A DNA stretch of 64,000 bases from a bacterium (GTDB taxonomy: Bacteria; JACRDZ01; JAQUKH01): assembly GCA_028719205.1 (NCBI GenBank), contig JAQUKH010000001.1:80603-144602 (forward strand). The letters are read 5' to 3'. Under the pieces are notes generated by a model, which worked only from the letters and a program-made list of their open reading frames with translations, did no database searches and had not been told where the DNA came from. The position numbers and the translations under genes are program-made. Below, in pieces: positions 4,498 to 20,307 of this stretch. Numbering within the stretch: the stretch's first letter is position 1; every line of letters starts with the position of its first letter.

Positions 4498-4921
4498 TAG
4501 CATTCAGCAATCAGCTGTCAGCATTCAGCTTTTTAATGAAAGACGTAATCATGCGCTTAATTTCTATTACCTTTTCAGTAAGACACTGGAAATCAGAATG
4601 GCTCAGCAACTCAAGATCATGAGTAAGCAGAAGATGATATTCTAACTCACATGCAGAACCCATCGCAATCTGAAAGAAACGCGATAACTCAGCTTCTCCC
4701 TTTCTTCCGCAGCCTTCTGCAATGTTAGCTGGAATAGAAGCACACGAACGCCGAATTTGGCTTGTCAGACCAAACAACTCATTTTTTGGAAAACTTGAAG
4801 TAGCTTTGTATACAGCCAAAGTTAATTCATGAGACTTCTCCCAAACTTTCAGTTCTCTAAAATTCTTCAATTGTATCGCTCCTTATTTTGCTGACAGCTG
4901 ATCGCTGAGTGCTGACAGCTC
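4498..4921. mobile_element. family-1 palindromic element carrying a gene. Left arm 4498-4529 and right arm 4890-4920 bracket the four-helix-bundle protein gene.
   Basis: The arms gcattcagcaatcagctgtcagcattcagc and gctgacagctgatcgctgagtgctgacagct are inverted TCAGC-heptad arrays as in the empty copies. The gene's last 7 codons lie inside the left arm. Confidence 0.4.
4511..4870 (-). CDS. four-helix-bundle protein (23S rRNA intervening-sequence protein family, PF05635/TIGR02436)
   Basis: ...LAVYKATSSFPKNELFGLTSQIRRSCASIPANIAEGCGRKGEAELSRFFQIAMGSACELEYHLLL... TTG start preceded by AAGGAG. Confidence 0.85.
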   Translation of the reverse strand: MKNFRELKVWEKSHELTLAVYKATSSFPKNELFGLTSQIRRSCASIPANIAEGCGRKGEAELSRFFQIAMGSACELEYHLLLTHDLELLSHSDFQCLTEKVIEIKRMITSFIKKLNADS

Positions 4922-6127
4922 TTATATGGCTTTATACGCTTCCTTCCTCTTCAGTATCCTTTGTAAATAATCTATTGTTTCCTGTTTTGGTAATTTTTTT
5001 ATTAACGTTTCATAGACAACTTTTGAAGTCATACTATTTATAATGGCATCTGCTTTTTTGATATCTTTCACGCCTGCAAATGTTTGCGCGAGATTTCCTA
5101 TCCCCGTATTATAAGCGGCAATAACGCAGTAAAGCCTGCTTTCTACATCTTTTATATTTTTGCAGTAACCATAAAATAATAATCCAAGATAAGCAGTTCC
5201 AATATTTATGTTGTTTTCATCATTATATAAATAAGAAGGGCTCAATAAATATGACTTCCCATATAAAATTTTCGTAACATCTTTACCGGCTGTTCCAGGG
5301 ACCACCTGCATAAGCCCATAGGCGGGAATCGGAGACTTTGCCATCGGATTAAAAGCGCTTTCTGTATGTATTACTGCCAATGCCAGAGACAGATCTAATT
5401 TATTTTTATCCGTGTATTTGCTGACTGACGCTTTATATTGTTTTGCTCTTTTAAGTAAACTATCAGATGGCAGGTCTATTTTTATGCTAATTACAATCGT
5501 TTTCTCAACTTTTGACGGCGCTTCCTGAATTTTAGCTTTTGCTACTATCTTTTTTACTTCTTTAGAAACTTCTTCTTTTTTAGGCGTGGGAGTATTAAAA
5601 AATACAGGCGCCAGGATCGGATCGCTTTTCACCTCATCTTTTTTTATATTCTTTACTTCTTTAATTACCTTTTTTTCTATGTTCTGTGAAAGCTTATCTT
5701 TTTCAAAGGCCGTTTTTTTGTCTTCAACCATTAAATCTTCCAGTGCCTTTTTAATTTTATTCTCTTTTTCCTCTTTTTTTTCATTCTGGCCTACGATTAT
5801 ATCTATTTTTATATTATTATTCTCAAAATCCACAATTTTTTTTGTTTGATAATCAGGAGAGTACTCAACCCATTTTTTATTATCAGAAATTTCAGGTTTA
5901 TCCCAGTTTGCTAATATCTCTTTTTTGTAATTCTCATATTCTTCTTCTACTATATTTTTATATTGTTCAAATTCTTTTTCTATTTCCGCTTGATATTCCT
6001 CAAATTCCTGCTGTTCCTGAGCAACTCCATTTTCCTGCTGTTTAACAAAGTCTTCAAAAGATTCAGCGGATACAAATGAAAAGTTAAAAAATATCATTAC
6101 ACCGGCCAAAACAATTACTTTTTTCAT
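4922..6127 (-). CDS. MltC-like membrane-bound lytic murein transglycosylase (SLT domain) with E/K-rich coiled N-terminal region
   Basis: HTESAFNPMAKSPIPAYGLMQVVPGTAG catalytic motif. Start chosen at ATG 6127 (MKKVIVLAGVMIFFNFSFVSA signal peptide, GGAAGGAA RBS). The longer ORF to 6160 would start with TTG inside the repeat. Confidence 0.75.
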   Translation of the reverse strand: MKKVIVLAGVMIFFNFSFVSAESFEDFVKQQENGVAQEQQEFEEYQAEIEKEFEQYKNIVEEEYENYKKEILANWDKPEISDNKKWVEYSPDYQTKKIVDFENNNIKIDIIVGQNEKKEEKENKIKKALEDLMVEDKKTAFEKDKLSQNIEKKVIKEVKNIKKDEVKSDPILAPVFFNTPTPKKEEVSKEVKKIVAKAKIQEAPSKVEKTIVISIKIDLPSDSLLKRAKQYKASVSKYTDKNKLDLSLALAVIHTESAFNPMAKSPIPAYGLMQVVPGTAGKDVTKILYGKSYLLSPSYLYNDENNINIGTAYLGLLFYGYCKNIKDVESRLYCVIAAYNTGIGNLAQTFAGVKDIKKADAIINSMTSKVVYETLIKKLPKQETIDYLQRILKRKEAYKAI

Positions 6128-6148
6128 TTTTTGTTTTTCCTTCCAATT

Positions 6149-6227
6149 AGCTATCAGCAATCAGCGCTCAGATATCAGCTAATTCAAATAAAAGCTGAAT
6201 GCTGACAGCTGATAGCTGAACGCTTAG
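6149..6227. repeat. family-1 TCAGC-heptad palindromic element (complete, empty)
   Basis: agctatcagcaatcagcgctcagatatcagct - aattcaaataaa - agctgaatgctgacagctgatagctgaacgct. Confidence 0.7.
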
Positions 6228-6898
6228 TATTTCTTAAACTTCTTGATAATCCAAATAACAACATATATTGCCACACAAAACCCTACAAAAAACGCAAGTA
6301 TAAGTTCATTGGTTCCTAAACTAAAACCGCTTTTTTCAGATATGGAAGATTCCGATAACGGTTCCACTTTTGCTTCAGATTTAGCTTCTTCCTTGACTTC
6401 TTCTTTTACCGCTTCTTTCACTTCTTCTTTTTGTATTTCTTTTGGTTTTTCTACTGCTATTTTTTCAACCTGTTTAATTTCAACTGTTTCAGCTTTTATA
6501 TCCGCTAAAATCAAATTTTCTTTTTTATTTTCAACCGCAGCCCCTTTACGAAGCTCTTCTAATTTATCTATTTCCTTATCTAGCTCATCCTGCCCATTTT
6601 TTGCTTTATTCTCCTGCCATAATGCTTCTTCGTTTATTTTTTTTTCTTTTTCGGGAGCAGCTTTTCCTTCGGTTTTAGCCTCATTTGAAATACTAATTGA
6701 TTTTTTGTCTTCTGAAATTTCTTTTTTAAACTTATTAAAATCCTCTAAATTTTCTTTCTTGTGCTCCTGAAAATCCTCTTTCATCTTTTGACTGGTTTCT
6801 CCCTCAAGCTCATTTTCAACGTCATCATATGTTTCAGCAAATAAAAACGTACTATTTAATAACATTATTATTCCGATAAAAATAAGTAATTTTTTCAT
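6224..6898 (-). CDS. secreted E/K-rich low-complexity protein with C-terminal transmembrane anchor
   Basis: Signal peptide MKKLLIFIGIIMLLNSTFLFA (ATG 6898, AAGGAG RBS); C-terminal LILAFFVGFCVAIYVVIWII; contains the ALWQENKAKNGQDELDKE motif shared with 7562..8164. Confidence 0.5.
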   Translation of the reverse strand: MKKLLIFIGIIMLLNSTFLFAETYDDVENELEGETSQKMKEDFQEHKKENLEDFNKFKKEISEDKKSISISNEAKTEGKAAPEKEKKINEEALWQENKAKNGQDELDKEIDKLEELRKGAAVENKKENLILADIKAETVEIKQVEKIAVEKPKEIQKEEVKEAVKEEVKEEAKSEAKVEPLSESSISEKSGFSLGTNELILAFFVGFCVAIYVVIWIIKKFKKY

Positions 6899-6924
6899 TC
6901 TATTATTTCTCCTTTGAAGTTTAA

Positions 6925-7031
6925 GCATTCAGCTCTCAGCTATCAGCACTCAGCTTTTTAATAGCATTCATCCATCTGCATTCAGTTTTTGAATGGATTT
7001 AGCTGATAGCTAGTAGCTGACCGCTGAACGC
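6925..7031. repeat. family-1 TCAGC-heptad palindromic element (complete, empty)
   Basis: gcattcagctctcagctatcagcactcagc ... agctgatagctagtagctgaccgctgaacgc. Confidence 0.7.
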
Positions 7032-7037
7032 TTCTTT

Positions 7038-7496
7038 TCATTGCAACACCATCCATACATGAATTTCCCCTGATTTTTCATCTTTCCAGATCTCTTCAAT
7101 ATTCGCTTTTACACTTTTACTATCAGACGTCTGAACGCTATAAGTACCCATATATGTCTTTGCGTCATTCTGTGTACCGGTTGTCGCGGTTACAAGATAA
7201 CTATTAACCTTTACCCCTAACTGCCTTGCTATATCATCCAAGGCCCTTTCTATAGCCAATTTTCTCTGTTCATTTTCACTTTTTATATGTATTCCGGATG
7301 TCCCAACACCGCCAATATTGCCTTTCATTCCCGGATTCCAATACCATTCCGGTTTACCATTTACTATTTTTGTCCCTTTTGATGTAACGTTCGTAATTAT
7401 TGATCCGCTATTATCCGCTTTTTTTACGCAGGATGACGCGGTAAACGCCAATATAACTACAGGTATTAGTAATAACCGGCTAAAAATATTTTTCAA
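7038..7496 (-). CDS. LPP20/FlgP-like lipoprotein
   Basis: Lipobox TASSC; PEWYWNP...GGVG...A..A..LA pattern. TTG start. Confidence 0.55.
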   Translation of the reverse strand: MKNIFSRLLLIPVVILAFTASSCVKKADNSGSIITNVTSKGTKIVNGKPEWYWNPGMKGNIGGVGTSGIHIKSENEQRKLAIERALDDIARQLGVKVNSYLVTATTGTQNDAKTYMGTYSVQTSDSKSVKANIEEIWKDEKSGEIHVWMVLQ

Positions 7497-7561
7497 ATTA
7501 ATACCCCCATTTTATTGGAGGAAAAGCATAAGATCTGCTTTCCCTCCAACTCTAATATTTA

Positions 7562-8164
7562 CTATTTTTTAGATTCAACTAATTTATTTACTTCTTTGTC
7601 CAGTTCATCCTGCCCATTTTTCGCTTTAAACTCCTGCCATAAAGCCTGTTCGTTCTTAAAACTGGTTTCAACCTGGTCTTTTATGGATTTCTTAGCTAAT
7701 TCATTATCAATAACAATCAAAACATATAAATTATCTTTTGGGGATGCCCAACTATCCCTAAGTGTTGTACCATTTAAAGTTTGGCTTGCAACTTGTTTTG
7801 ATACATCCGCTGATACCCTGTCAACCATTTCGCCATTACCAACCCCTGTAACATTCATAAAAGATTTAACCATATTTTTTACTTTTAACTCCATCATTCT
7901 GGCAAGTTCATTTCTTCCGTTGGCCAAAGCCTCTGTTCTTGCAAAGGACATACCGGCTTTACCTACTTTAGCAATACCAACTGCCGCGATCCCGCCTTCT
8001 ACCTGAGAGGTGGTTACCCATTTTGGAGCATCTTTAAATTCACTTTGTACAGTTGTATCCTGTTGAGTGTCTGTTTGCTTTGTTACGGCCTTAGTTGTTC
8101 CACAACCGGCAGAAAACACCACTGCAATAGCCAAAATACTTAACGAAATCATTTTCTTTTTCAT
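7562..8164 (-). CDS. LPP20/FlgP-like lipoprotein
   Basis: Lipobox FSAGC; APKWV...GGIAAVGIAKVG...ARTEALANGRNELA; strong AAGGAGGAT RBS. Confidence 0.65.
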   Translation of the reverse strand: MKKKMISLSILAIAVVFSAGCGTTKAVTKQTDTQQDTTVQSEFKDAPKWVTTSQVEGGIAAVGIAKVGKAGMSFARTEALANGRNELARMMELKVKNMVKSFMNVTGVGNGEMVDRVSADVSKQVASQTLNGTTLRDSWASPKDNLYVLIVIDNELAKKSIKDQVETSFKNEQALWQEFKAKNGQDELDKEVNKLVESKK

Positions 8165-8230
8165 TGTGTATCCTCCTTTTTATTTACATTGTGAATTTTT
8201 TTTTATTTAACTACAATGCTAGCTTATTAA

Positions 8231-8337
8231 GCAATCAGCAGTCAGCTTTCAGCTTTTTAATAGCTTTCTGCGTTCAGTTATCATTAGTCAGCTTTTGAAT
8301 AAAATTAGCTGATAGCTGAATGCTGAAATCTGATTGC
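8231..8337. repeat. family-1 TCAGC-heptad palindromic element (complete, empty), located in the 5' leader of 7562..8164
   Basis: gcaatcagcagtcagctttcagc ... agctgatagctgaatgctgaaatctgattgc. Confidence 0.7.
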
Positions 8338-8414
8338 TAAAGATTTAATCACCTCCCTGGCTTTAAGATGCTATTTTTTAGTAATAAACTTTTTTATATC
8401 TAACTCTAATATAA

Positions 8415-8431
8415 TGCAAGAACCATGCCAA
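8415..8431 (-). promoter_or_regulatory. sigma-54 (-24/-12) promoter. Minus-strand sense TTGGCATGGTTCTTGCA.
   Basis: TGGCAT-N5-TTGCA with correct spacing; 16/18 identical to the promoter at 16190-16206. Confidence 0.6.
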
Positions 8432-8576
8432 AAGTCGTTAAACAGTAAAAATAAATTCATTTTTATTAAAAAAACCCGATTTTTTCAGTCTTTTCCCCGT
8501 TTTTTTTAATCCAAATCCAAAATTACTAATATTAGCATATCAAAAACAGCCTGTTCCTATATCAAATAACGTATGG

Positions 8577-8591
8577 ATGCATGGAATTCCA
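8577..8591. promoter_or_regulatory. putative EBP enhancer (UAS) palindrome ATGCATGGAATTCCA, about 155 bp upstream of the sigma-54 promoter
   Basis: Same 15-mer as in the 16342-16359 palindrome, with the same spacing to the promoter. Confidence 0.45.
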
Positions 8592-8626
8592 CACAAGATA
8601 TGTTAAATGTTTTAGAATCTATCACC

Positions 8627-8670
8627 GTCAGCATTCAACTTTTGCATAAAATTAGCTGATAGCTGAAAGC
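8627..8670. repeat. family-1 element, half copy
   Basis: gtcagcattcaacttttgcataaaattagctgatagctgaaagc. Confidence 0.55.
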
Positions 8671-8673
8671 TCC

Positions 8674-10176
8674 TTATACAATATGCCCCCCTTTGTCAGG
8701 TTTATTAATATACTTTCGTCCTTTTGCCGTAATTTTGTACTTTTGGAGACGGCTGTTGGGCTTTTCCAGAATGGTTCTTTCAATAAGCCCTTCTGACAAA
8801 AGATCTTGAACCAACCGTTTAAGTGCCCCTGTAACTTGCTTCCTTCCAACTTGCACAGATATCTCAGACATAGAAAGCGGTTTATCCTTTAATGCTATTA
8901 TAACTGACTCGGCCCCTGACTCGGCCCCTGACTCGGCCCCTACAACCGGTTTTAATTTCACTAAAATTTTACGCCATACTGTTAAAATAAAGAACCCATT
9001 TTCTAAATGGAATTCCGGTGGTTTCATGCCTGCTTTTCGGCAATTATCAAACATATCAACAGTTCCGGTTCCAGCCTTTTCGATATATTTTGTCAGAAAA
9101 AGCGGTTCGGCAATCAGCGGATTTCCAGGGTGAGACGAATGAGGCATCGATAAACTCTCAATTGTCAGTGACGGCGGCAAAGTTCCAGGATTCCATACCT
9201 CAAGGCGATCTGCAAAAAGCATAATTTCAACGCTGGCATTGCTTATATAATCACGATGAGCTACTGCATTTACAATTCCCTCCGCGACCACTTCTTGCGG
9301 AATATCATATTCAACAGGAGCTTGCGGCCCTTGCGCCCGTGTTCCAACAAAACGGTTAAGTTTTGACATCACGAAATCAACCGACTGATCGACCATATCA
9401 AAAACCGTTCCCTTGTAAATTTGATATGATGGAATCGGCTTGAGTTTCTGTGTACCGTGAAAATGCATACATTTCACTTCGGAAGTAATCAGAAACCGCT
9501 GTGGTTTGACTCCAAATAATAAAATTGCCGCATGATTCGGTTTCCCTTTATCAAGCAGATCCAGATGGGTCAAAACATCAACAACAGGTGTTGTTTCTGC
9601 TAAAGCGTAATCACGGGCGTTGTGCGCGCGTGAAAGAAACCAGCGAATCTTATCGTCCGAAATATCGGCGACCTCCGCATTAAGACACATCGTCGCGTCA
9701 AATGGCCCGGTGTGGATCCGCCCGGAACCAAGAAGATAATGTACCAGGCTTGCGTAGACAGCTGAATGCAATTCTGGCAATGTATTAAAACGCCGTCGAA
9801 TCAACTGTGCTCCTGCTAAATTGATCAAAGAAATCATCTTTGGATGCCGGGATGCATCGCTATCGCCTTTGACAAAGATATAGCGAGGTTTACTACCCTG
9901 CGATGCCAAAAGAAATTCTTTATGCGTCGCGGACATTCCGTCGGAATCTTCAATGCCATACTTATTACCAAACAGGCCAATATAAATATCGCTCCGTTTA
10001 ACTTCTTCCAAGTACACCTCATCAGCACGGCGATCAGTAGCAGGAATATCCTCAAACAGAAACACATTAAAAAACCTGTTTAATAACGCGTCTCCCTGTA
10101 TATAATCTTTCAGAGCACGGCGTTCTTCGCTAAATTCTTTTTGAACACTGCTGATAAATATTTTATATTTTGTCAT
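8674..10176 (-). CDS. DUF4062-like N-terminal domain + AlbA_2 (Schlafen-like) + HATPase_c_4 + C-terminal winged HTH (RecG-like transcriptional regulator architecture, COG2865)
   Basis: KIFISSVQKEFSEERRALKDYI...SDIYIGLFGNKYG (DUF4062 pattern); ...NAVAHRDY...GTGTVDM... (HATPase_c_4); C-terminal wHTH. Confidence 0.55.
   Translation of the reverse strand: MTKYKIFISSVQKEFSEERRALKDYIQGDALLNRFFNVFLFEDIPATDRRADEVYLEEVKRSDIYIGLFGNKYGIEDSDGMSATHKEFLLASQGSKPRYIFVKGDSDASRHPKMISLINLAGAQLIRRRFNTLPELHSAVYASLVHYLLGSGRIHTGPFDATMCLNAEVADISDDKIRWFLSRAHNARDYALAETTPVVDVLTHLDLLDKGKPNHAAILLFGVKPQRFLITSEVKCMHFHGTQKLKPIPSYQIYKGTVFDMVDQSVDFVMSKLNRFVGTRAQGPQAPVEYDIPQEVVAEGIVNAVAHRDYISNASVEIMLFADRLEVWNPGTLPPSLTIESLSMPHSSHPGNPLIAEPLFLTKYIEKAGTGTVDMFDNCRKAGMKPPEFHLENGFFILTVWRKILVKLKPVVGAESGAESGAESVIIALKDKPLSMSEISVQVGRKQVTGALKRLVQDLLSEGLIERTILEKPNSRLQKYKITAKGRKYINKPDKGGHIV
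8906..8941. repeat. 3x12-nt perfect tandem repeat (gactcggcccct) encoding an (AESG)3 linker
   Basis: Seen directly. Confidence 0.9.
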
Positions 10177-10195
10177 TTTGTTTTGCTAATTTCTT

Positions 10196-12466
10196 TTATT
10201 TATATTCACTGCCACGAACAGGCCAAACAGAATAAAAATAGTTATCATTAAACAAACGAAGCTCTTGACCGTTAGAAAAATCAACAATTCGGCCATCAAT
10301 ATTTATCCAATAGCCCTGACTTTCAGGCACTAAATTAACAAAAGGATGTTGCTCTTGTTTATTATAAACAGTTTTCATTCTTATCAACTCTTTATATGTT
10401 GGCAATCTCCATCCAAAATATTTTTCATAATTTAAATTATTACATGCTAATTCAGCATTTTCCCAAATCACTTTGTTTTTTAAATAATTTGCGTCCTTTA
10501 ACCACAATAGTTTTGTAACATTATCATAAATAACACCATTCCCTAAATCTATGAATTTTGAAGGAAATAAAGCATATTTATTAATTAGTTTGGACCCAGT
10601 TAAATCCATAAATCTTGAAGAAAATTCATATTTTTTATTTAACGCATCATCAATAACATATGCTTCATTAATACTAAAATCTTTTGTCGTTGGAAAATTC
10701 ACTTTGATTTCAGCCCTTAGCAAATTATTTTCAAAATGCTGTTTCAACACTTTTGCCTCTTCTCTTGGAATTAGTATATTTTGTTTACATGTTACTTGAA
10801 TTCCTTTGATTGGTTGTTTTATTCTTATGGTAACGGGGTAAAAATTAAACTCGGAATTGTACTGTCGAAGTTCTAATATTAAATCATTGTATGTTAAAAC
10901 AAATTCATTTTCCGAAAGCTGTTTTAGCCTTTCAATAAATGGCGTGATTTGTTTATAATATTCAGATTCAATTTTACTCGATAATGCCTCAAATTCAGGC
11001 GTTTGCTCTTTATCTAAATTTTCTTTTTCCTTTAATATTTCAATTGACAATCTGTTCTTAAATTCAATTTCTGACTCAAACTCATCTTTATTAGAGTTTA
11101 ATATTTTCCCAAATTTCTCATTAATTCTTATACATATCTGGTTTATTCCATTAGTCAATTCTTTTCTATAATTTTTCTGAATGTCTTTTAATTGTGCGTC
11201 TATTTCCTCCATCTCGTTTATTGTAGCTTCAGGAGAAATTGATCTTAATGTTGCACCTTCCAGCGATTTCCTTTTACCTTCAACTTCCTGTTTAAGCATT
11301 GCTAATCTGGTTTCTTCTTCCTTCTTTTTTTGGATCAATTCATTTTCTTTTTTTAATCGTTCCTTTTCTTCGTCTTCCCTTTTTTTACGGTTTTCTTCCA
11401 ATGCATCTTGTTTTAATTGTTCCGCCCTTAATTTTGCTTCAATTTTTATTTTTTCGATCTCTGCCTGATATTTTGCACTTTCATCATTTGCCTTTAAAGC
11501 AGATTCTTCCAATAATTTTAACCGATCAAGTTCTTTTTGCAGGTTTACAACTTCCGCTTGATTATCTTCCAGTTTGCGTTCAATTGAAGGGATAAAAACA
11601 TAATCTCCTAATCCATATAACTCTCCATATTTTGGTGTTTGTATATGGTTTCTCGCGTTTGCGTCTGAGAATACTTTTTCTTTAAGCGCAGTGCTTATTT
11701 CAGTGGCTGTTATAAAATCATCTGTATTTTCCAGAAGTTCAATAAACCTGCCGGTAAAAACCGAATGGCCTTTAGGCCCGCCGTCTAATACCTGCTGGTC
11801 TTTATCCCCCGCGGTTAACACTTGTCTGACCCGCTCTTTAGAAATTTCTTTCAAATAGTTAAAATCCCTTGCTGTTTCTCTATTTGCCCCTCTTTTTGTT
11901 ACAAGAATTCCGCCATAGCACGCATCAACAATATAGAAAATATGTTTTGCCGGTATTCGTTTTGAAATATCATCTCTAATCATTGTCATAGAAAAATTTT
12001 TATATAATTCTTCTTTTTTGAATGTTCCGTCAAATGGTATAAGATAACCCAAATCCCCTTCCGCTGTTTTTTCCGTATATCCATGCCCTGCCCAGAAAAC
12101 AAAAATCGCGTCTTCTTCTGTAACCTGGCTAAGATTACCTAAAAGAATTTTAGTAATATTTTCTTTTGTAGCATCTTTATTGTATAAGGTAATGATCTTA
12201 TCAAATTTAAAATTCTTCCTGATAGCGTCTTCAACCCCTTTAGCGTCCTTTACCGCATAAGCCAATTGCATGTCATATGGCAAATTTTCATATTGGTCAA
12301 TTCCAATAATAACCGCGTAAGATTTGTTATATAACTTAAGTTCTTTTTTCTCTCCCGATGTTTTATCAACGGCAATGATTTTTATACCGCGGGTATCATT
12401 AATTGCGTATATTCCGCTTGATATAAAACAAGCAATAATTATTAAAAATAATAATTTTAATTTCAT
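10196..12466 (-). CDS. secreted peptidase C14 caspase-domain protein + long coiled coil + C-terminal DUF1566 (Lcl C-terminal-like) domain
   Basis: Signal peptide; FWAGHGY and VDACYGG dyad motifs; E/K/R-rich coiled coil; C-terminal WRLPTYKEL...WPVRG, characteristic of DUF1566. Confidence 0.8.
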   Translation of the reverse strand: MKLKLLFLIIIACFISSGIYAINDTRGIKIIAVDKTSGEKKELKLYNKSYAVIIGIDQYENLPYDMQLAYAVKDAKGVEDAIRKNFKFDKIITLYNKDATKENITKILLGNLSQVTEEDAIFVFWAGHGYTEKTAEGDLGYLIPFDGTFKKEELYKNFSMTMIRDDISKRIPAKHIFYIVDACYGGILVTKRGANRETARDFNYLKEISKERVRQVLTAGDKDQQVLDGGPKGHSVFTGRFIELLENTDDFITATEISTALKEKVFSDANARNHIQTPKYGELYGLGDYVFIPSIERKLEDNQAEVVNLQKELDRLKLLEESALKANDESAKYQAEIEKIKIEAKLRAEQLKQDALEENRKKREDEEKERLKKENELIQKKKEEETRLAMLKQEVEGKRKSLEGATLRSISPEATINEMEEIDAQLKDIQKNYRKELTNGINQICIRINEKFGKILNSNKDEFESEIEFKNRLSIEILKEKENLDKEQTPEFEALSSKIESEYYKQITPFIERLKQLSENEFVLTYNDLILELRQYNSEFNFYPVTIRIKQPIKGIQVTCKQNILIPREEAKVLKQHFENNLLRAEIKVNFPTTKDFSINEAYVIDDALNKKYEFSSRFMDLTGSKLINKYALFPSKFIDLGNGVIYDNVTKLLWLKDANYLKNKVIWENAELACNNLNYEKYFGWRLPTYKELIRMKTVYNKQEQHPFVNLVPESQGYWINIDGRIVDFSNGQELRLFNDNYFYSVWPVRGSEYK

Positions 12467-12470
12467 AATA

Positions 12471-13544
12471 CTATCTTTGACCTACATTATGTCTTTTGAC
12501 ATCATAAAAAGCCACACTTGATGCTTTTATATTATCTTTATTTTTATCTTTAATGTTTGAATCAATATAATATGGCAATGAGAATGAAAAATAATTACCA
12601 ATATCTTCTATTTTAATATTATTATCTTCGGGATTAAAACTGAGAGTAATATCAATGCCGCTTTTTACATTTAGCTTAAGAGCACCACTTAACACGTCAT
12701 CCCATTTTAAAAAATTTAAATTATTAGTATTAAAATTACTATATTGACTAGATTTGACAAATCCACTAACATATTTAAAAATATTCCCTTTTTCATCAGA
12801 TAAAGTTGGGTTAATTTCATAAACTCCTATTATTAAAATCTCTTTATCCAATTGATTAACAACATTTAATAACACTTCAGCTCTTCCCTTTGATAAAACT
12901 TTTACTTGTTTTACAGTAAAAAGTAAATCTCCAACTTTCTTTGAGTTTGAATTTCCGACTGAAGGGACATAGGAAGGAGTATTTTCAGAACTTTGCTGTT
13001 CAAAGGGCTGATTTGATTCAACTATTCCTCTCTCCAGAAGTTCATTTATCGCCTGGGTCTTTGCGATATTTCCTGAAGAAGCGCCAATCACCTTGGCGGT
13101 ACTTATATCTATAATTTTAACTGAAAGCCTTACATTGTCGCCAAACGGGGTAATACTTCCTGTGATAATTGCTTCTACTCCGGCTATCTGCCCCAGCTTT
13201 TTGGCTGATTCAGGGTTTACTAAATCAGATAGTGAAAGTTTATGTTCCCGTAAAAGAGCTTTAAGGTGAATTCTATCCACCACTTCAAATCCTTTCCCTG
13301 CAGAGGTAAGAGTTACTGAAAACTCCTCTGCTAAAAATCTCCCTAATTCGGTTACATTACCCTGAAGGTCTGTGAAATCAACCACAGCTATTGACTTCTT
13401 CCCCGCTTGTGATATATTTTCTGCCATTGTGGCAGACAGGGCGCTTATTTCTTTTTCATAAGCCTTCGATAAATTTGAACCAGACAGTAAAAATACTGTT
13501 GATAAAAGGCAAACAAGAAAAAACTTCTTAATGATACTTTCCAT
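12471..13544 (-). CDS. FlgO/CsgG/LpoB-like fold periplasmic protein (paralogue B)
   Basis: Signal peptide; IAVVDFTDLQGNVTELGRFLAEEF...VVDR..L..LL.E..L pattern. The N-terminal 190 aa are near-identical to 13601..14590. Confidence 0.5.
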   Translation of the reverse strand: MESIIKKFFLVCLLSTVFLLSGSNLSKAYEKEISALSATMAENISQAGKKSIAVVDFTDLQGNVTELGRFLAEEFSVTLTSAGKGFEVVDRIHLKALLREHKLSLSDLVNPESAKKLGQIAGVEAIITGSITPFGDNVRLSVKIIDISTAKVIGASSGNIAKTQAINELLERGIVESNQPFEQQSSENTPSYVPSVGNSNSKKVGDLLFTVKQVKVLSKGRAEVLLNVVNQLDKEILIIGVYEINPTLSDEKGNIFKYVSGFVKSSQYSNFNTNNLNFLKWDDVLSGALKLNVKSGIDITLSFNPEDNNIKIEDIGNYFSFSLPYYIDSNIKDKNKDNIKASSVAFYDVKRHNVGQR

Positions 13545-13600
13545 TATATTAATCCTCCCTTTTTGTAAAAATCTTTATTTCTTATTTCTATCGTTTATCA

Positions 13601-14590
13601 TCATTTTGTTATTGGAATATTGCGAAGCTGGGCAATAATCCATTTGTTGTCTCTATAGCATGGGATTTCTAGCAACGATAGTTTGCTAACATTTTTTGAA
13701 ACTGTTTCAATTTTAAATGTTAATCTCGTTGGCACATCAGAAACAAGCAAATTTCTAGCACATCTGTCCTTATGATTTCCAAGCTCAATACCTTCCGGAC
13801 AATATTCATTCCCAAAATCATCAAAAATTCTTGATGATTTTGTCCAATCAGTACTACCAGTACAACCACAAATCATTATTTCCCTATCGTTTTTATCTTT
13901 ATTAGTAATTATTAAATTACAGGTTATTGTCGTATTAGAAATTTTACACTCTTTTACCTCAAAAAGAAAATCATCCACTTCCACACTTTGCTGTGCTTTT
14001 GTTGGTTTCTGTGATGATATTGTTTGTATTGGTTTACTTACATCTTGTGCTTGAACTTCTGCTTCTATCCCCCTCGCCAAAAGTTCATTAATAGCTTGTG
14101 TTTTAGGAATATTTCCAGCAGTGGCGCCAATAACCTTGGCAGTACTTACATCTAATATTTTAATGGTAAGCCTTACACTTTCACCAAAAGGGGTAAGGCT
14201 TCCTGTAATAATCGCTTCTACTCCGGCTATCTGCCCCAGCTTTTTGGCTGATTCAGGGTTCACTAAATCGGAAAAGGCAAGTTTATGTTCCTTTAAAAGG
14301 GCTTTAAGATGGGTTCTATCTATTACTTCAAATCCTTTTCCAGCCCCGGCAAGAGCAACCGAAAACTCCTCTGCTAAAAATCTTCCAAGCTCGGTTACAT
14401 TACCCTGAAGGTCTGTAAAATCAACTACGGCTATTGTCTTCCTGCCAGCCTGTGTAATATTTTCTGCCATCGTAGCAGACAAAGCGCTTATTTCTTTTTC
14501 ATAAGCCATAGAGAAACCAGAGCCTGACAGCGAAAATATTATTGATAAAAAACAAATAAAATAAAACTTCTTCCATGCATCTTTTTTCAT
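13601..14590 (-). CDS. FlgO/CsgG/LpoB-like fold periplasmic protein (paralogue A) with Cys-rich C-terminal domain
   Basis: Same N-terminal domain. Start at ATG 14590 with AGGAGG RBS; the longer ORF to 14620 would overlap the upstream stop. The C-terminal 120 aa contain 8 Cys. Confidence 0.5.
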   Translation of the reverse strand: MKKDAWKKFYFICFLSIIFSLSGSGFSMAYEKEISALSATMAENITQAGRKTIAVVDFTDLQGNVTELGRFLAEEFSVALAGAGKGFEVIDRTHLKALLKEHKLAFSDLVNPESAKKLGQIAGVEAIITGSLTPFGESVRLTIKILDVSTAKVIGATAGNIPKTQAINELLARGIEAEVQAQDVSKPIQTISSQKPTKAQQSVEVDDFLFEVKECKISNTTITCNLIITNKDKNDREIMICGCTGSTDWTKSSRIFDDFGNEYCPEGIELGNHKDRCARNLLVSDVPTRLTFKIETVSKNVSKLSLLEIPCYRDNKWIIAQLRNIPITK

Positions 14591-14609
14591 TAAATCATTC
14601 CTCCTGTAT

Positions 14610-16070
14610 TTATTTCCCAAATATTAAAGTTAATTTGTTAATAAATTCATCAATTAACGGTTCAGCTAATTTTTTAGTAAACTGATCATCTCTTTTTCCA
14701 TTAATCGCCTGTTTCTGATCCAATCCGAATATCTTTTCTGTTCTATTAATTGAAACAACTTTTTCTTTATTAGAAACTTTGTTTAGGGTTAGAATAGCCT
14801 TAGCTATATAAGATTTTAAACCCATGTTATCCTGAGAAAATTCAATCGAGGTTTCTATAGCTAAATTTAAATCGGGAGTAACATCCTCTAATTTTTCTGT
14901 TTTTTTCTTGTAATCATCTGCTTCTTCATTATTACCTCTATTACGGGCAACTTTTTCTTTAGCAGTAAAAATGTTTTTTTGGCCTGTGATTTCATCCAAT
15001 TTTTGTGAATTATAAATATGCCAACCAGCTTCTGTAAGTTTTTGATCCAATAATGTCTCTAAAATATCACTACCTTCTCCTTTTATTTCCATAATTACAT
15101 TTTTAGGAACAAGTTTTATCTGTTTTTCTTTTGATTCTACAACAGGAGCTGATACTTCCTCTTTTTGAGTTACAGGTTGTGGAGCAGTAACCTGTTTCGG
15201 TGAAGAATCAGACGGCACAATAAATACAAACTCGCCTCCCTCAGATCCCGGCAAATTGCCAAATTCCGGTGTCTGTTCTGCAAGCTCCGCTACTTTTGGC
15301 TGAATATAAGAGTTTATTTCTGAGGCAGTGATAATACCATCGCCATTATAGTCGGCCATACCTGTACTTAACGCCTCTAGGAAAGTTCCTGTAAAGGCGG
15401 AATGGTTCTTATAACCGCCATCACTTACCGGCTCCTTGCCTCCGGCGGTTAGGGCCTGCCGGGCTTTCCGTTTTGTGATTTCCTGTAAGTATCGCGGATG
15501 TTCCTTATCCACCGCCGCTGCGCGCGTGGTAAAGAACATACCTGAATAACAGGCATCAAGCACCATATAGATTTGTTTAGCCTTGATATCTTTTAAAATA
15601 TCTTTTAGCTCGGTCATGGAAATCGCGGTGACTCTGTATTCCCCCTGCCGAAAATCAACCGGTATGAGGTAACCATTATCTAAACTACTTTCCCCATGCC
15701 CGGCAAAATAGACTAATAATCTATCTCTATCACCTATTTTATAGGGCAATTCGTCCCCAAGTATTTGCAAAATTCCGCTTTTTGTGGCTTTATTATCATA
15801 CAGGGTAAAAATATGATCCTCCGCGAATCCATATTTATCCTGAAGCATTTGTTTTACCGCCTTAGCATCATTTACAGCATACTTGAGCTTTCCAACCTTT
15901 TGATAATCATCAATTCCTACCACCACCGCCCAGCTTTGTCCAAAGGGCTCCAGAACTTCCCCGTCTTTAGCGACAATCTTAATACTACGTAATCCCTCTG
16001 CGGCATAACCCAAAGTTGTATTAAATATAACCGATATTATGAATAAAACTATAATACGTCTGATATGCAT
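14610..16070 (-). CDS. secreted peptidase C14 caspase-domain protein with uncharacterised C-terminal domain
   Basis: About 85% aa identity to 1046..2500 over the caspase domain (YFAGHG, LDACYSG); the C-terminal 200 aa have no recognisable motif. Confidence 0.85.
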   Translation of the reverse strand: MHIRRIIVLFIISVIFNTTLGYAAEGLRSIKIVAKDGEVLEPFGQSWAVVVGIDDYQKVGKLKYAVNDAKAVKQMLQDKYGFAEDHIFTLYDNKATKSGILQILGDELPYKIGDRDRLLVYFAGHGESSLDNGYLIPVDFRQGEYRVTAISMTELKDILKDIKAKQIYMVLDACYSGMFFTTRAAAVDKEHPRYLQEITKRKARQALTAGGKEPVSDGGYKNHSAFTGTFLEALSTGMADYNGDGIITASEINSYIQPKVAELAEQTPEFGNLPGSEGGEFVFIVPSDSSPKQVTAPQPVTQKEEVSAPVVESKEKQIKLVPKNVIMEIKGEGSDILETLLDQKLTEAGWHIYNSQKLDEITGQKNIFTAKEKVARNRGNNEEADDYKKKTEKLEDVTPDLNLAIETSIEFSQDNMGLKSYIAKAILTLNKVSNKEKVVSINRTEKIFGLDQKQAINGKRDDQFTKKLAEPLIDEFINKLTLIFGK

Positions 16071-16189
16071 AAGTTGTGCCCCCCTATATCAACTTCCACT
16101 ATAAACCAAATAATCAACAATCTTTAGTCTGTATCTTTCCTTTATATTGGTGTATTTTATTTTCAAACTTATACTTCATACTTAATATA

Positions 16190-16206
16190 TGCAATTACCG
16201 TGCCAA
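16190..16206 (-). promoter_or_regulatory. sigma-54 (-24/-12) promoter. Minus-strand sense TTGGCACGGTAATTGCA; about 120 nt upstream of the caspase start at 16070.
   Basis: Consensus TGGCAC-N5-TTGCA. Confidence 0.65.
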
Positions 16207-16341
16207 AGTGTTCATTTGTACAAAAATAAATAAAAATAATCTGTTTCTCTCAATTTTGTTCCGGATTCCCGATAAAAACATTCGTAAATTACGGCATACG
16301 TTAAAAAAAATGACCTATTCCTCAAAAGCCTCAATTATGAA

Positions 16342-16359
16342 TGCATGGAATTCCATGCA
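16342..16359. promoter_or_regulatory. perfect 18-bp palindrome TGCATGGAATTCCATGCA, putative EBP enhancer (UAS) about 146 bp upstream of the sigma-54 promoter, abutting the EBP stop codon
   Basis: Seen directly; its core recurs at 8577-8591 with equivalent spacing to the second sigma-54 promoter. Confidence 0.5.
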
Positions 16360-19146
16360 TCAATTCTCTTTTAGAACTATACCAATTAATTCTTCAATAT
16401 ATTTATGATATTTTTTTGGTAAATTTTTAAAACGCCGCTGACATTCTTTAGTTGCTGACTCTTTATTTTGATATTCTTTTATCACATCAACAACATTTTG
16501 GTAATACTCATTTAAACGCTGAACAAGTAATTCACTCTGCTCAGGGTCATTTGTAAGTTTCGAGGCTGTTGATTTGATATCCCATACATTTTCGGAAAGT
16601 TTCTGGAAACAAATTCCTTTAAACCTTGAACCTACAGTTCCTCTGGCCTGATTAAGCATACTTGCTGTATTTTCTATTACAAAATTATTGCTTCTCATAA
16701 TTTTCAGAAATTCCTCATCTTCAACATTTTCAAATATTTCCATATGTTCTTTTAATGATATATTATTCTCAATACCAGCTGTCTTTGGCAAACAGATATC
16801 TTCCTCTCTGATAACAGCTTTTTCCGATAAAGCTATGGCATTGAGCACTACGCTTCTCAAATCCCTTACATTCCCAGGCCAGGAATAGGAATTAAGTTTT
16901 ATCTTAGCTTCATCATTAAATTCTTTTCCAGGAGCGTTGGATATTTTTACAAAATATTCCGCCAATAATAAAATATCGTCTTTTCTTTCTCTTAAAGGCA
17001 CCAATTCTATAGTATGAACTTTTAACCTGTAATATAAGTCTTCTCTAAATCTTTTATTTGCTATCTCATCTTCAATATTTTTATTGGTAGCGGCAATAAT
17101 TCTAATATCTACTTTTATCGGGATAGTGTCCGTTCTTCCGACTTTATCAATAGTTTTCTGTTCCAAAACCCTTAATATCTTCGCCTGCAAATCATACTTC
17201 ATATCTCCTATTTCATCTAAAAACACAGTACTCTTATCTGCCAGTTCAAATAATCCTTTTTTATCACTAATCGCGCCTGAAAATGCTCCTTTTTTATGCC
17301 CGAACATCTCGCTTTCTAAAAGCGTTTCAGGCACAGAAGGTACATTAATCTCTATCATTGTTTTATCACTTCTTGAACTCATTTTATGTATTGCCTCGGC
17401 AAATAATTGTTTACCTGTACCTGTTTCTCCCAGAATAATAACCGGCTCTTCGCTCATCGCGAACTTTTTAGCGGTTTGAAATAATTCAAGCATTTGCTTG
17501 TTCTGAGTTACAATACCAAAAGACCTGCATTCATCTATAAGTTTTCTCATCTCTTTGGCAGGTTTTTCATAAATATTGATAAATGGCTTTGTGGTTTTTT
17601 TTGATAATTTTATAATCTTCTCTAAAAGATCATTACGTTCCTTTTCTAATTTATTAATATTATTTTTGTCCGTTTTTATGCTATCTTCCAACTGCTTGAC
17701 TTTGTTTTGAAAATCTTTTTTTTCTTCATTAATATATGCTTCATAATCCAATAATTTATCCTGCATATCTTCCAGTATTTCTTTTTTCCGGAACAGATCA
17801 TTATTAATATTTTTAAGGTTTTGCATAAGCTGTTCAATTTCTTTTCCTCTTATCAAATAATCTCCCAGCAAATTCACGCTCCCAAAAATAAAAAGTCCCA
17901 TAAGCGGATAAAGATCAGCCAGCGATATTCCTGAAATTATAAAAAGTGAGTATGATAAAACAAGATATATTGGGATCCCGATAATAGACGACAAGAAAAC
18001 TATTATTCCATTAGCTCTCACAGATAATAATCCAATTATAGATATCAGAATGATCATTATGACAAAGCTGTAAAATATGGGGACTTCCCTGATAAAATTA
18101 CCGCTTAGTATAGTATAAAGAATATGAGAATGGATACCTATCCCCGGGTAATTAGTATCTATTGGAACATTATGAACGTCCTTATTAACCGAAGAAGCGT
18201 TTCCGACAAGGCATATTTTGTCTTTTAATCTTTCAGAAAGTTCCTTTTCCCGTTCAGGTTTCCCTTCCGGGTTAAGAACAGTAACATACCAGAATGGTTC
18301 TAAATAATCATGTTCATTCACATTCCATGGCTTTATGTAATTGATCCACATCTCGCCCTTATCGTTAATAGGAATAACAAGATCCATTATTTTTCCATCA
18401 GGGTATTTTGCCTCCGGAAGAATTATTGAATGCCCGGGTTTAACTATGATTTTATCTTTTGGTACCTGAAGATAATCACAGGCCAGTAAAAGATTCACTG
18501 AAGGGAAAAGATTACCGTCAATATCAATTAAAAGAGCTGCCTTACGGAAAACATCATTTTTCTCATTTTCTTCATTTCCTGTGCTAATGTGACCAATACC
18601 TTTTGCCGCTTTTGCAAGGTCATCATTTAGTAATGAACCATTTCCGGAAAACCAGAAACTTTCCGGTATACTATTTATTGTTAAAAAATTCTTTTTTATT
18701 ATTTCTATGAAGGGTAGCGGGTATTTGTCTAAAGTAAATGCCTCGTTTTTATTTTTAACTAAATTAAAACTTACCGGCCAATAGACATTTCCTGCCTCGT
18801 TAGTCGCGTTGATCAATGAAAGCGGGATATCACCTCTCAGTATGAAATCATAAAAGATTTCTTTAACGCCATAACTTTTCAATTTATTGATCATTTTAGC
18901 GTGTAGATCAGGGGTAGGATAACCAATTTGCGGGATTGTTTTTACGTCGTCCACTGAAATAGTAACTATTTGTTTTTTTATTTTGAATGGGTCGGAACGA
19001 AGATTCCCGCAGATTTTAAGTTTAAGATCATAAAGTTTATTATTTAACGATTGAATAGGTGGGATAAAGATACCTATAAAAACTAATAGTAAACACAGGA
19101 ATAGAATATAAAATCTAGTGTTAATACCGGAAATTTTATTCTCCAT
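16360..19146 (-). CDS. sigma-54-dependent transcriptional activator (bacterial enhancer-binding protein) with N-terminal CHASE2 extracytoplasmic sensor, TM segments, coiled coil, AAA+ sigma-54 interaction domain and Fis-type HTH
   Basis: GETGTGKQLFAEAIH Walker A; GAFSGA (GAFTGA variant); ESEMFGH; C-terminal NTASMLNQARGTVGSRFKGI HTH. Confidence 0.8.
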   Translation of the reverse strand: MENKISGINTRFYILFLCLLLVFIGIFIPPIQSLNNKLYDLKLKICGNLRSDPFKIKKQIVTISVDDVKTIPQIGYPTPDLHAKMINKLKSYGVKEIFYDFILRGDIPLSLINATNEAGNVYWPVSFNLVKNKNEAFTLDKYPLPFIEIIKKNFLTINSIPESFWFSGNGSLLNDDLAKAAKGIGHISTGNEENEKNDVFRKAALLIDIDGNLFPSVNLLLACDYLQVPKDKIIVKPGHSIILPEAKYPDGKIMDLVIPINDKGEMWINYIKPWNVNEHDYLEPFWYVTVLNPEGKPEREKELSERLKDKICLVGNASSVNKDVHNVPIDTNYPGIGIHSHILYTILSGNFIREVPIFYSFVIMIILISIIGLLSVRANGIIVFLSSIIGIPIYLVLSYSLFIISGISLADLYPLMGLFIFGSVNLLGDYLIRGKEIEQLMQNLKNINNDLFRKKEILEDMQDKLLDYEAYINEEKKDFQNKVKQLEDSIKTDKNNINKLEKERNDLLEKIIKLSKKTTKPFINIYEKPAKEMRKLIDECRSFGIVTQNKQMLELFQTAKKFAMSEEPVIILGETGTGKQLFAEAIHKMSSRSDKTMIEINVPSVPETLLESEMFGHKKGAFSGAISDKKGLFELADKSTVFLDEIGDMKYDLQAKILRVLEQKTIDKVGRTDTIPIKVDIRIIAATNKNIEDEIANKRFREDLYYRLKVHTIELVPLRERKDDILLLAEYFVKISNAPGKEFNDEAKIKLNSYSWPGNVRDLRSVVLNAIALSEKAVIREEDICLPKTAGIENNISLKEHMEIFENVEDEEFLKIMRSNNFVIENTASMLNQARGTVGSRFKGICFQKLSENVWDIKSTASKLTNDPEQSELLVQRLNEYYQNVVDVIKEYQNKESATKECQRRFKNLPKKYHKYIEELIGIVLKEN

Positions 19147-19406
19147 ATTTAATTTTTAAGAATAATATTATGGTGCAAAATTTTATTAATTATACTTTAT
19201 ATTTTTTTGCCTGTAAAGCGCTCTTTTGAACAACTTTTGTTAAATACAATTTTTGTGGATTTTGCTAACATAAAAAAACACTGTAAATTTAAAGATACAT
19301 CTTCAAATTCGCAGTGTTCTAATATTTCCAGCGTCCGTTTTTTGAACTTTTTTCCAATTTCAGGCCTAATGCAAACAAAATCCTATCACTACAAGCCCTT
19401 TTTATT

Positions 19407-19433
19407 CTATGCTCTTTGCGCCATGCTCTATGC
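19407..19433. repeat. family-2 heptad repeat (CYWTGCN)n immediately 3' of tRNA-Val
   Basis: ctatgctctttgcgccatgctctatgc; related copies at 25111-25144 and 48259-48301. Confidence 0.6.
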
Positions 19434-19439
19434 TTTTAT

Positions 19440-19516
19440 TGGTGGGCGATACTGGACTTGAACCAGTGACCTCCCCGATGTGAACGGGGCACTCTAACCA
19501 GCTGAGCTAATCGCCC
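19440..19516 (-). tRNA. tRNA-Val (anticodon CAC), 77 nt, CCA encoded
   Basis: Manual cloverleaf: acceptor GGGCGAT/ATCGCCC, anticodon stem CCCCG/CGGGG, loop TTCACAT, T-loop TTCAAGT. Confidence 0.85.
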
Positions 19517-19545
19517 ATTTTCAAATTTATAAGTTGAAAACTATT

Positions 19546-20307
19546 CTACTTTACAGCGCCGGAATGATAATCAACCATATAATCTTTTTCATAAGCGGAC
19601 TCATTATAAATCCACCAGGGCGCAGATTCAACCCAGATCTGCTTGATCCTTTTTGTTATATCGTCGACTGTTTTTGTTTCACCGTATATTTGTAATATAT
19701 AACCGTCTTTTTTAATTTTATTTATATAATCTTCGGATTTATGGCTATAAGTTAATATATCATTTTTAAAAATATTATCAGTCTCCTGCCATATTAATTC
19801 AGAAATTGCAGTATCACCCCTTGAAAAATAGTGTCTTCTAAAACTTTTTCTGATCCTTTTTTTACCGTTAGGCAAAATGTCGACATTCTCTTTTTCTGTA
19901 TTTGGATCCTTTAACGGAAATGCCGGGAGATCATATAACCGCGCGAAAATATTTTTATCCATCACAGGCGCAATTACCTCTTCCATATTAACTAATGTAA
20001 CTTTATTTTTATCTGTACAGGTAATTTCTTTTAAAATAAATTTATCTTTATTAACGATTATTTTAATATTGCCATTCACATCCTTTGATGAAGCGAAAAT
20101 TACTAAATATTCTTCTTTGTTAAATTCAATTTTATTAATAACTTCATATTTCCAATATTGGATTTTACTTGAATTACTTTCTAAATCATCAATTGCGGTT
20201 ATTTCTCTTCGCACTGTCCAATTATCACCAACTTCCATCGATGGAACAAATTCTTCAGCGGATGAAACAGAAAATAACATTAATAGAAATATAATTATTT
20301 TTTTCAT
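19546..20307 (-). CDS. hypothetical secreted protein
   Basis: Signal peptide MKKIIIFLLMLFSVSSA (internal start chosen to avoid overlap with pyrG); no recognisable domain. Confidence 0.45.
   Translation of the reverse strand: MKKIIIFLLMLFSVSSAEEFVPSMEVGDNWTVRREITAIDDLESNSSKIQYWKYEVINKIEFNKEEYLVIFASSKDVNGNIKIIVNKDKFILKEITCTDKNKVTLVNMEEVIAPVMDKNIFARLYDLPAFPLKDPNTEKENVDILPNGKKRIRKSFRRHYFSRGDTAISELIWQETDNIFKNDILTYSHKSEDYINKIKKDGYILQIYGETKTVDDITKRIKQIWVESAPWWIYNESAYEKDYMVDYHSGAVK

Follow-up and report, generated by a model that had tools for sequence, protein, structure and literature searches.

How two neighboring operons coding for exported caspase-like peptidases and envelope lipoproteins might be switched on together, and by which regulator, is the question raised by a 64,000-nucleotide stretch of bacterial DNA (assembly GCA_028719205.1, contig JAQUKH010000001.1, positions 80,603 to 144,602; hereinafter the window). 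The genes of both operons are on the minus strand, as is the adjacent gene for a putative bacterial enhancer-binding protein (EBP; 19146..16360), i.e. an activator of sigma-54-dependent transcription. A first-pass annotation had drawn attention to a pair of sigma-54 promoter-like motifs in this DNA, termed P1 and P2 here, and to a common palindrome, TGCATGGAATTCCATGCA, upstream of both. We put at roughly 0.8 the probability that P1 and P2 are sigma-54 promoters and that the palindrome preceding each of them serves the adjacent EBP as upstream activating sequence (UAS), a reading that relies on sequence comparisons throughout.

P1 (TTGGCACGGTAATTGCA, 16190..16206, with its core TGGCACggtaaTTGCA at 16205..16190) and P2 (TTGGCATGGTTCTTGCA, 8415..8431, with its core TGGCATggttcTTGCA at 8430..8415) both match the -24/-12 consensus on the minus strand, where they read cactTTGGCACGGTAATTGCAtatatt (16206..16190) and acttTTGGCATGGTTCTTGCAttata (8431..8415), respectively. 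The pattern TGGCAY-N5-TTGCW has exactly these two matches on both strands of the 64 kb, against 0.14 expected from 100 shuffles, none of which reached two. P1 fits the extended consensus TGGCACG-N4-TTGCW exactly, P2 differs from it solely by a C to T change in the -24 element, and the GG and GC dinucleotides of both cores are 10 nt apart, as required. Both motifs are intergenic, share the orientation of the minus-strand operons that follow them and precede the respective first ATG by 120 and 251 nt; the two promoter motifs proposed by the first-pass annotation are present where it had placed them and are the sole consensus matches in the window. Transcription is predicted to start 12 nt past the -12 C, at about 16179 for P1 and about 8404 for P2, so that the leaders preceding the ATGs at 16070 and 8164 would measure about 109 and 240 nt, respectively. 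An Rfam search of window positions 1-20000 recovered tRNA only and no riboswitch in these long leaders. A weaker sigma-54-like match, TGGCGCGATCTTTGC, at 42986-43000 on the minus strand lies inside an open reading frame (ORF) of 501 aa without a nearby palindrome and is probably due to chance. Taken together, these features support the view that P1 and P2 are genuine sigma-54 promoters, which would make the two operons sigma-54-dependent.

Upstream of P1 is UAS1, a perfect 20-bp palindrome (ATGCATGGAATTCCATGCAT, 16341..16360) with the 18-bp core TGCATGG-AATT-CCATGCA, centered at about -171. UAS2, its counterpart upstream of P2 (TTGTGTGGAATTCCATGCAT on the minus strand, 8577..8596), is centered at about -182 and has an intact promoter-proximal arm and two mismatches in the distal arm. 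The 15-mer TGGAATTCCATGCAT occurs exactly at 16341-16355 (minus), 16346-16360 (plus) and 8577-8591 (minus), while only 0.24 matches to it would be expected even if two mismatches were allowed, and the window holds no further full palindrome besides UAS1 and UAS2. The earlier description of the first site as an 18-bp perfect palindrome abutting the EBP stop codon was right as to its perfection; the palindrome is actually 20 bp long and overlaps the stop codon, because its first A is the final base of the TGA. Likewise, the shared 15-mer bears out the claim that the same palindrome precedes both promoters, with the qualification that the second copy is imperfect. The spacing of 146-155 bp given with it had mixed reference points: the distances from the 18-bp core to the TGG of the -24 element are 136 nt at the first site and 147 nt at the second. 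The two centers differ by 11 bp, that is by one helical turn, and fall within the range of about 80-200 bp expected of EBP inverted-repeat UASs. The minus-strand spacers between UAS1 and P1 (16207..16340) and between UAS2 and P2 (8432..8576) both contain A/T tracts, those of the latter recurring every 10-13 bp or so, which makes an intrinsic bend possible; no site within one mismatch of the consensus for integration host factor (IHF) was found in either spacer. Alignment of the two upstream regions is confined to palindrome, promoter and a short A/T tract, and since their flanks do not align, the similarity is one of motifs and does not stem from a recent duplication.

The EBP gene (16360..19146, minus strand) encodes a protein of 928 aa (GenBank MDD5771908.1) with Pfam matches to CHASE2 (5e-30), Sigma54_activat (2e-63) and AAA_lid_14 (2e-15). 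From the N-terminus it comprises a transmembrane (TM) helix, a CHASE2 domain (19-374), about three further TM helices (~355-428), a coiled-coil linker, a sigma-54 AAA+ domain (545-713), the AAA lid and a helical C-terminal domain of 120 aa (~810-928). The Sigma54_activat match is full-length to PF00158 (2.4e-63), and the variant of the GAFTGA loop present here is GAFSGA, with GAFTGA, GSFTGA or GSFSGA in other family members. In the hydropathy profile a single N-terminal hydrophobic segment is followed by a group of about three others at 355-428; this predicts a membrane-integrated protein that exposes the CHASE2 domain on the outside of the cell and keeps the AAA+ domain in the cytoplasm, the usual arrangement of CHASE2 proteins. 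The best NCBIfam match, TIGR02915, scores 283.8 bits against a cutoff of 502.6, and all 26 matches, including those to the equivalogs for NtrC, NifA, NorR, PspF, RtcR and the PEP-CTERM regulator, fall below their cutoffs and are limited to the AAA+ core.

The first-pass annotation was correct in calling this protein an EBP; the helix-turn-helix (HTH) that it had placed at the C-terminus is instead a distinct 120-residue helical domain different from the Pfam HTH_8 or Fis type. The AlphaFold2 (AF2) model of this domain (pLDDT 97) has seven helices, the first three of which locally resemble HTH domains. Its sequence is strongly conserved, with the signature SRGTxxxRFKGICF ... EYYxN ... ECxRRFKNLP.xY. 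A word-index protein search with the domain returned only three fragments, and it was an exhaustive HMMER search that revealed the family, with 230 representatives at E<1e-3; most of the 150 of these that were listed are 800-1000 aa long, and the family sequences inspected have hydrophobic N-termini like the EBP of the window. Upstream of the EBP gene there is a promoter candidate, a sigma-70-like TTTACA-17-TATAAT at 19189..19217 on the minus strand, which as an 11/12 consensus match is weak evidence. As no palindrome is found there, the EBP does not appear to be autoregulated in this genome. A tRNA gene lies just upstream (19443-19516, minus strand; Rfam 66.7 bits).

Full-length relatives of the EBP were few in a word-indexed search, namely P0002 (55% identity) and P0005 (32%), and the regions around such relatives already contain the same pair of elements. 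In L001 (EBP 55% identical, GC content 28%) the palindrome ATGCATGGATTCCATGCAT, i.e. ATGCATGGA-T-TCCATGCAT, lies 60 nt before TGGCATtcaaaTTGC, and the pair precedes two small genes, a DUF4384 gene and a caspase-PEGA gene. In L002 (EBP 32% identical, GC content 46%) ATGCGTGGTTTTCCATGCAT lies 119 nt before TGGCACacccaTTGC, ahead of an LPP20-DUF4384-EBP-caspase cluster. We then used the EBP C-terminal domain alone, as an alignment of seven sequences, to collect loci from genomes of Nitrospirota, Nitrospinota and uncultured lineages, 34 in all. Across 648 kb around homologous activators, with GC contents of 28-65%, the pattern TGCRTGG-N3-5-CCAYGCA has 14 matches with at most one mismatch. For 13 of them a strict sigma-54 pattern in the proper orientation lies 50-190 nt downstream, whereas the fourteenth, in L019, is followed by TGGTATcagccTTGCg. 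The distance from palindrome to promoter in the 14 pairs is about 60-150 nt, and the chance of such a pairing, given 40 matches to the promoter pattern in the 648 kb, is about 0.009 per site. Hence the proposed co-occurrence of the two motifs, checked in the window and in these loci, holds for all 14 palindromes. The pairs usually stand ahead of LPP20, DUF4384 or caspase genes, and the EBP orthologs beside them are merely 31-55% identical to that of the window.

The promoters are likewise kept at orthologous positions in more than 15 loci, and those lying upstream of LPP20/DUF4384 operons include the ones in L001, L002, L007-L009, L016, L017, L019, L020, L024, L025 and L031. BLAST of the window proteins against the locus ORFs recovered the order [LPP20]-DUF4384-(CHASE2 adenylate cyclase)-EBP-caspase in about 20 loci. 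The palindrome is centered at -151 to -155 in most Nitrospirota and at -95 to -163 among the relatives as a whole. In a reverse test we searched metagenome contigs with the DNA pattern TGCATGG-N4-CCAYGCA-N110-140-TGGYAY-N5-YTGC alone. It yielded five matches; all three with usable flanks are directly upstream of a DUF4384 gene, and two of these contigs also encode a CHASE2 cyclase and the EBP, the remaining two contigs being too short to judge.

The same loci offer several further observations. A second CHASE2 protein, with the architecture CHASE2-adenylate/guanylate cyclase-TPR, is encoded in L016 (5340-7559), L017, L019, L024, L025, L031, L040 and L041; in the Nitrospirales its gene lies between those for DUF4384 and the EBP, within the same sigma-54 operon. 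The location of the Nitrospirota EBP inside a sigma-54 operon implies positive autoregulation. In L001 two unrelated genes, one of them a phosphoribosyltransferase fusion, are inserted between the EBP and its UAS (13215-14983). In the Nitrospinales, L014 (600-5200) and L015 (1100-5300) contain five units in tandem, in each of which CCATGCATGG/CCATGCA half-sites are clustered some 75-90 nt before TTTGGCACGGCGCCTGCAATA; four of the units would drive small secreted proteins with Pfam Curlin_rpt matches and the fifth an EF-hand-like secreted protein. Other sigma-54 promoters, TGGCACacaagTTGCT and TGGCATgcggaTTGCT, are found 3-5 kb downstream of Nitrospira EBP homologs in L023 (~15280-15330 and 13080-13130), L026, L027, L030 and L035, with a conserved upstream element containing GTATC-N6/7-GATAC that is probably the site of another activator.

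The palindrome core is not uniform across the family, and its variation follows that of the C-terminal domain, which falls into two classes. Class S, with SRGT/SRNT..RFKGICF, includes the EBP of the window and is associated with TGCRTGG sites or with clusters of CCATGCA half-sites, whereas class W, mostly from Nitrospira, has the helix WDRSTVTQRLKGLCF. A canonical TGCRTGG site is present in 13 of the 20 class-S loci, the window counted, as opposed to none of the 16 class-W loci. Four class-W loci have TGCGGGG-N4-CCCCGCA instead, followed after about 105 nt by a sigma-54-like promoter (L013 15987-16004, L018 11148-11165, L034 12674-12691 and L037 4374-4391), and the pairs of this class precede OmpA and VIT/VWA genes, or LPP20 and a trypsin-like protease. 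This covariation bears directly on the most durable of the alternative readings, namely that the promoters are real and the palindrome is bound by some other regulator, such as a repressor or a nucleoid protein, with the EBP acting from solution or from another site. Some EBPs do act without binding DNA, and we infer binding of the palindrome by this EBP through a domain that lies outside the recognized HTH families. However, besides the EBP no regulator is consistently encoded next to the palindromes, and loci picked purely by the EBP C-terminal domain carry them. Moreover, the core switches from TGCRTGG to TGCGGGG along with the recognition-helix class of that domain, and no stronger argument is at hand for recognition of the palindrome by the EBP itself. 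We therefore regard a different DNA-bound regulator as improbable.

A second alternative, that P1 and P2 are chance matches, with transcription of the operons starting at sigma-70 promoters or continuing into them from the EBP gene, gains something from the AT-rich window, in which sigma-70-like matches are as common as expected (70 found versus 70.7), and from the lack of a terminator between the EBP gene and operon 1. Against it, two consensus sigma-54 matches contrast with the 0.14 expected, both are correctly placed, and promoters of this kind are conserved in more than 15 loci, making coincidence very unlikely. The palindrome at 16341-16360 might also be conceived as an RNA hairpin at the 3' end of the EBP mRNA, a terminator or a stabilizer, and not as a protein-binding site, given that it starts in the stop codon, that it could form an 8-bp stem with a 4-nt loop and that a terminator scan flags it. 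But the scan does so on the plus, non-transcribed strand only; on the minus strand, the transcribed one, the palindrome lacks a subsequent U-run (...CATGCATtcataattgagg) and is followed by tcataattgagg. The second copy at 8577-8596 has a broken arm and is not similarly located at a gene end, and in L002, L009, L016-L025 and others the sequence stands upstream of the operon and not after the EBP gene. What is conserved, over GC contents of 28-65%, is the sequence itself and not mere pairing: there are no compensatory changes, and a -24/-12 promoter is always found at a set distance. On these grounds, together with the missing U-run, a Rho-independent terminator was rejected, and a hairpin of any kind is scarcely credible. 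Finally, a recent local duplication devoid of regulatory function, for which the 83-89% DNA identity of the caspase paralogs and the 81% identity of the FlgO-like genes might be cited, is just as implausible, as P2 precedes an LPP20 gene and not a caspase paralog, the upstream regions align at the motifs and A/T tract alone, and the pair is conserved in distant phyla.

Several points nevertheless weigh against the proposal that the adjacent EBP activates P1 and P2 from the palindromes. No rpoN gene was recovered by an RpoN-box ORF search of the window and all collected loci, so that sigma-54 in this organism is deduced solely from the EBP and the promoters. The EBP C-terminus has no Pfam HTH_8 match and no significant match to solved structures, and its DNA-binding role is accordingly a prediction. 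We found no literature precedent for a membrane-tethered hexameric AAA+ activator on DNA. There is a single palindrome per promoter, with a degenerate distal arm in UAS2, while classical EBPs such as NtrC usually have at least two sites, which aid hexamer formation. The distance from UAS to promoter varies between lineages, the centers ranging from -95 to -182, and does not keep to a helical phase from taxon to taxon, only the two window sites being one turn apart. Among the close-class loci, L005, L006 and L010 have no canonical palindrome-promoter pair, and the Nitrospinota loci have clustered half-sites with other spacings instead. Lastly, many Nitrospirales loci are related, hence the counts do not represent independent events.

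With these points in mind, we propose the following scheme, in which the binding and looping of DNA, the need for sigma-54, the topology in the membrane, the kind of signal and the physiological role are all inferred. The EBP would be a one-component, membrane-integrated regulator whose extracytoplasmic CHASE2 domain senses an envelope or extracellular cue. Sigma-54 holoenzyme would wait at P1 and P2 (TGGCAY-N5-TTGCA) as a closed complex, while a dimer of the EBP C-terminal domain binds the inverted repeat TGCATGG-N4-CCATGCA at about -171 (P1) or -182 (P2). Bending of the A/T-tract-rich DNA between UAS and promoter might then allow the AAA+ ring to contact the holoenzyme via the GAFSGA loop and to use ATP for opening the closed complex. 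Two operons would thereby be turned on, with exported caspase-like peptidases and CsgG/FlgO/LPP20-type lipoproteins among their products, together with a lytic transglycosylase and a DUF4384 protein.

Operon 1, downstream of P1 (8674..16070; this and all the following genes are on the minus strand), begins with an exported caspase-like peptidase with a visible signal peptide (16070..14610). It continues with two paralogous CsgG/FlgO-like lipoproteins with Pfam matches to CsgG and FlgO (14620..13601 and 13544..12471) and a caspase+Lcl_C protein (12466..10196), and ends with a DUF4062/HATPase_c_4/Fic-C gene (10176..8674). The latter, which sits between operon 1 and UAS2, has a GC content of 0.40 versus about 0.32 and weak PADLOC matches to Argonaute-associated proteins, and is probably an inserted defense-type gene. 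Operon 2, downstream of P2 (1046..8164), encodes two LPP20 lipoproteins (8164..7562 and 7496..7038), a charged, exported protein anchored at its C-terminus (6928..6224), an SLT/MltC-like lytic transglycosylase (6160..4922), a protein of the 23S-rRNA-IVP (intervening-sequence protein) family (4870..4511; Pfam 2e-38), a TPR+DUF4384 protein (4477..2711) and a caspase+ricin lectin protein (2500..1046). Nearly all products of this regulon are exported or lipid-anchored. PADLOC gave only generic caspase and RtcR-like AAA+ matches, hence no evidence for a known defense system. The regulon predicted by the first-pass annotation, comprising the caspase/FlgO-like and the LPP20/MltC/DUF4384/caspase operons, finds support in the same gene classes behind palindrome-promoter pairs in other genomes.

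Three caspase genes (1-302, 1776-2075 and 15346-15645) have 83-89% DNA identity in the catalytic domain, and a fourth caspase copy is cut off by the left edge of the window. Identity between the two FlgO/CsgG-like genes is 81% (13022-13321 and 14065-14364), and the ricin-lectin region at 1050-1472 contains three copies of a 141-nt tandem repeat. In sequence terms, these features indicate recent expansion of paralogs or gene conversion. In addition, a repeat with a heptamer period, (CAGCWNT)n, is spread over 2680-8672, where CAGCWNTCAGCT has 26 matches as opposed to 0.9 expected. All 26 lie in operon-2 spacers, within the leader that follows P2 or immediately upstream of UAS2, and none elsewhere in the 64 kb. 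Opposed runs of the repeat pair into long, regularly interrupted mRNA hairpins at 6150-6225 (-34 kcal/mol, z -4.4), 6915-7035 (-49.5, z -6.3) and 8225-8335 (-30, z -3.4), which could be RNase III processing sites, stabilizers or an element akin to repetitive extragenic palindromes or miniature inverted-repeat transposable elements (REP/MITE-like). The 23S-rRNA-IVP-family gene (4511-4870) is bracketed by inverted heptamer runs at 4505-4530 (plus) and 4889-4914 (minus), recalling the placement of such genes in excised 23S rRNA stem-loops.

A broader reading can be built on these findings, to which we give somewhat less than even odds: that in Nitrospirota, Nitrospinota and candidate phyla the EBP represents a widespread family of one-component sigma-54 activators integrated into the membrane, with a new seven-helix domain and an 18-bp palindrome, controlling a "caspase plus amyloid" surface module through sigma-54. 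Members of this family would consist of a CHASE2 sensor, TM helices, an AAA+ domain and the seven-helix domain, predicted to bind DNA, and would read TGCRTGG-N4-CCAYGCA or, in a sister class, TGCGGGG-N4-CCCCGCA. If so, an extracytoplasmic signal would be coupled directly to an envelope program of exported caspase-like proteases, DUF4384 proteins and LPP20/CsgG/FlgO-type lipoproteins, with curlin-repeat amyloid subunits in some lineages. The CsgG/FlgO-like lipoproteins and the Nitrospinales Curlin_rpt genes would point to a surface-matrix or amyloid plus protease program, and the "caspase plus amyloid" module might then serve in biofilm matrix remodeling or regulated lysis. A regulator, a motif and a target set would thereby be supplied for a large group of uncharacterized caspase-like, DUF4384 and LPP20 envelope genes from lineages not readily accessible to experiment, namely the nitrite oxidizers Nitrospira and Nitrospina and several candidate phyla, and the motif is sharply defined enough to make the proposal directly testable. 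Should the activator work while anchored in the membrane, ToxR/CadC-style one-component signaling would be extended to sigma-54 AAA+ activators, and one would have to ask how one dimer site suffices for a hexameric ring to form at the membrane. Our literature search found no description of a CHASE2-sigma-54 activator, of the palindrome motif or of a DUF4384/LPP20/caspase regulon, and all three appear to be previously undescribed.

Among known systems, curli (csg) resembles the present one in that operon 1 encodes two lipoproteins with Pfam CsgG and FlgO matches and in that half-sites and sigma-54 promoters precede four tandem Curlin_rpt genes in the Nitrospinales L014 and L015. The operon-1 lipoproteins match CsgG over no more than about half of the profile. 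The window yielded neither a curlin-repeat protein nor CsgE/F or a CsgD-type regulator, and Curlin_rpt genes appear under this kind of control only in L014 and L015. In E. coli, curli are under the control of sigma-S and CsgD and not of sigma-54. CHASE2 sensors are known from adenylate cyclases, kinases and GGDEF proteins, and CHASE2-caspase fusions occur in cyanobacteria (PMC3501461). The closest CHASE2 domains (49-55% identity) belong to an adenylate cyclase of Firestonebacteria and a CHASE2-only protein of Desantisbacteria. No DUF4384/caspase module is found near the closest CHASE2 paralogs, P0003 (the cyclase) and P0004, implying that CHASE2 alone does not mark the system. What sets the EBP of the window apart from other CHASE2 sensors is its output, which would be direct sigma-54 activation.

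ToxR and CadC are membrane-integrated one-component activators (PMC5430869, PMC6320335). The EBP is like them in combining an extracytoplasmic sensor, TM segments and a cytoplasmic DNA-binding output in one polypeptide that would bind DNA at the membrane. They depend on sigma-70 and have an N-terminal winged helix and one TM helix, whereas the EBP is a sigma-54 AAA+ protein with a predicted C-terminal DNA-binding domain, about four TM helices and a remote site. The nearest precedent for the DNA elements is the NtrC-type EBP and its glnAp2-like promoters, where palindromes of the form TGCACC-N5-GGTGCA lie at about -110 and -140. The system described here shares with it an AAA+ Sigma54_activat domain with a GAFTGA-type loop, an activator gene beside its target operons, and a 17-18-bp inverted repeat with TGCA ends located 100-180 bp upstream of TGGCAC-N5-TTGCA. 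It departs from it in that the EBP of the window lacks a receiver domain and has a transmembrane CHASE2 input. Its C-terminus is the 120-aa seven-helix domain and not HTH_8/Fis, and each promoter has one palindrome, with no IHF site, in place of tandem sites. In sum, a -24/-12 promoter with a remote palindrome is a textbook architecture, which is combined here with variant features of the EBP itself, namely its predicted integration into the membrane and a predicted new DNA-binding domain.

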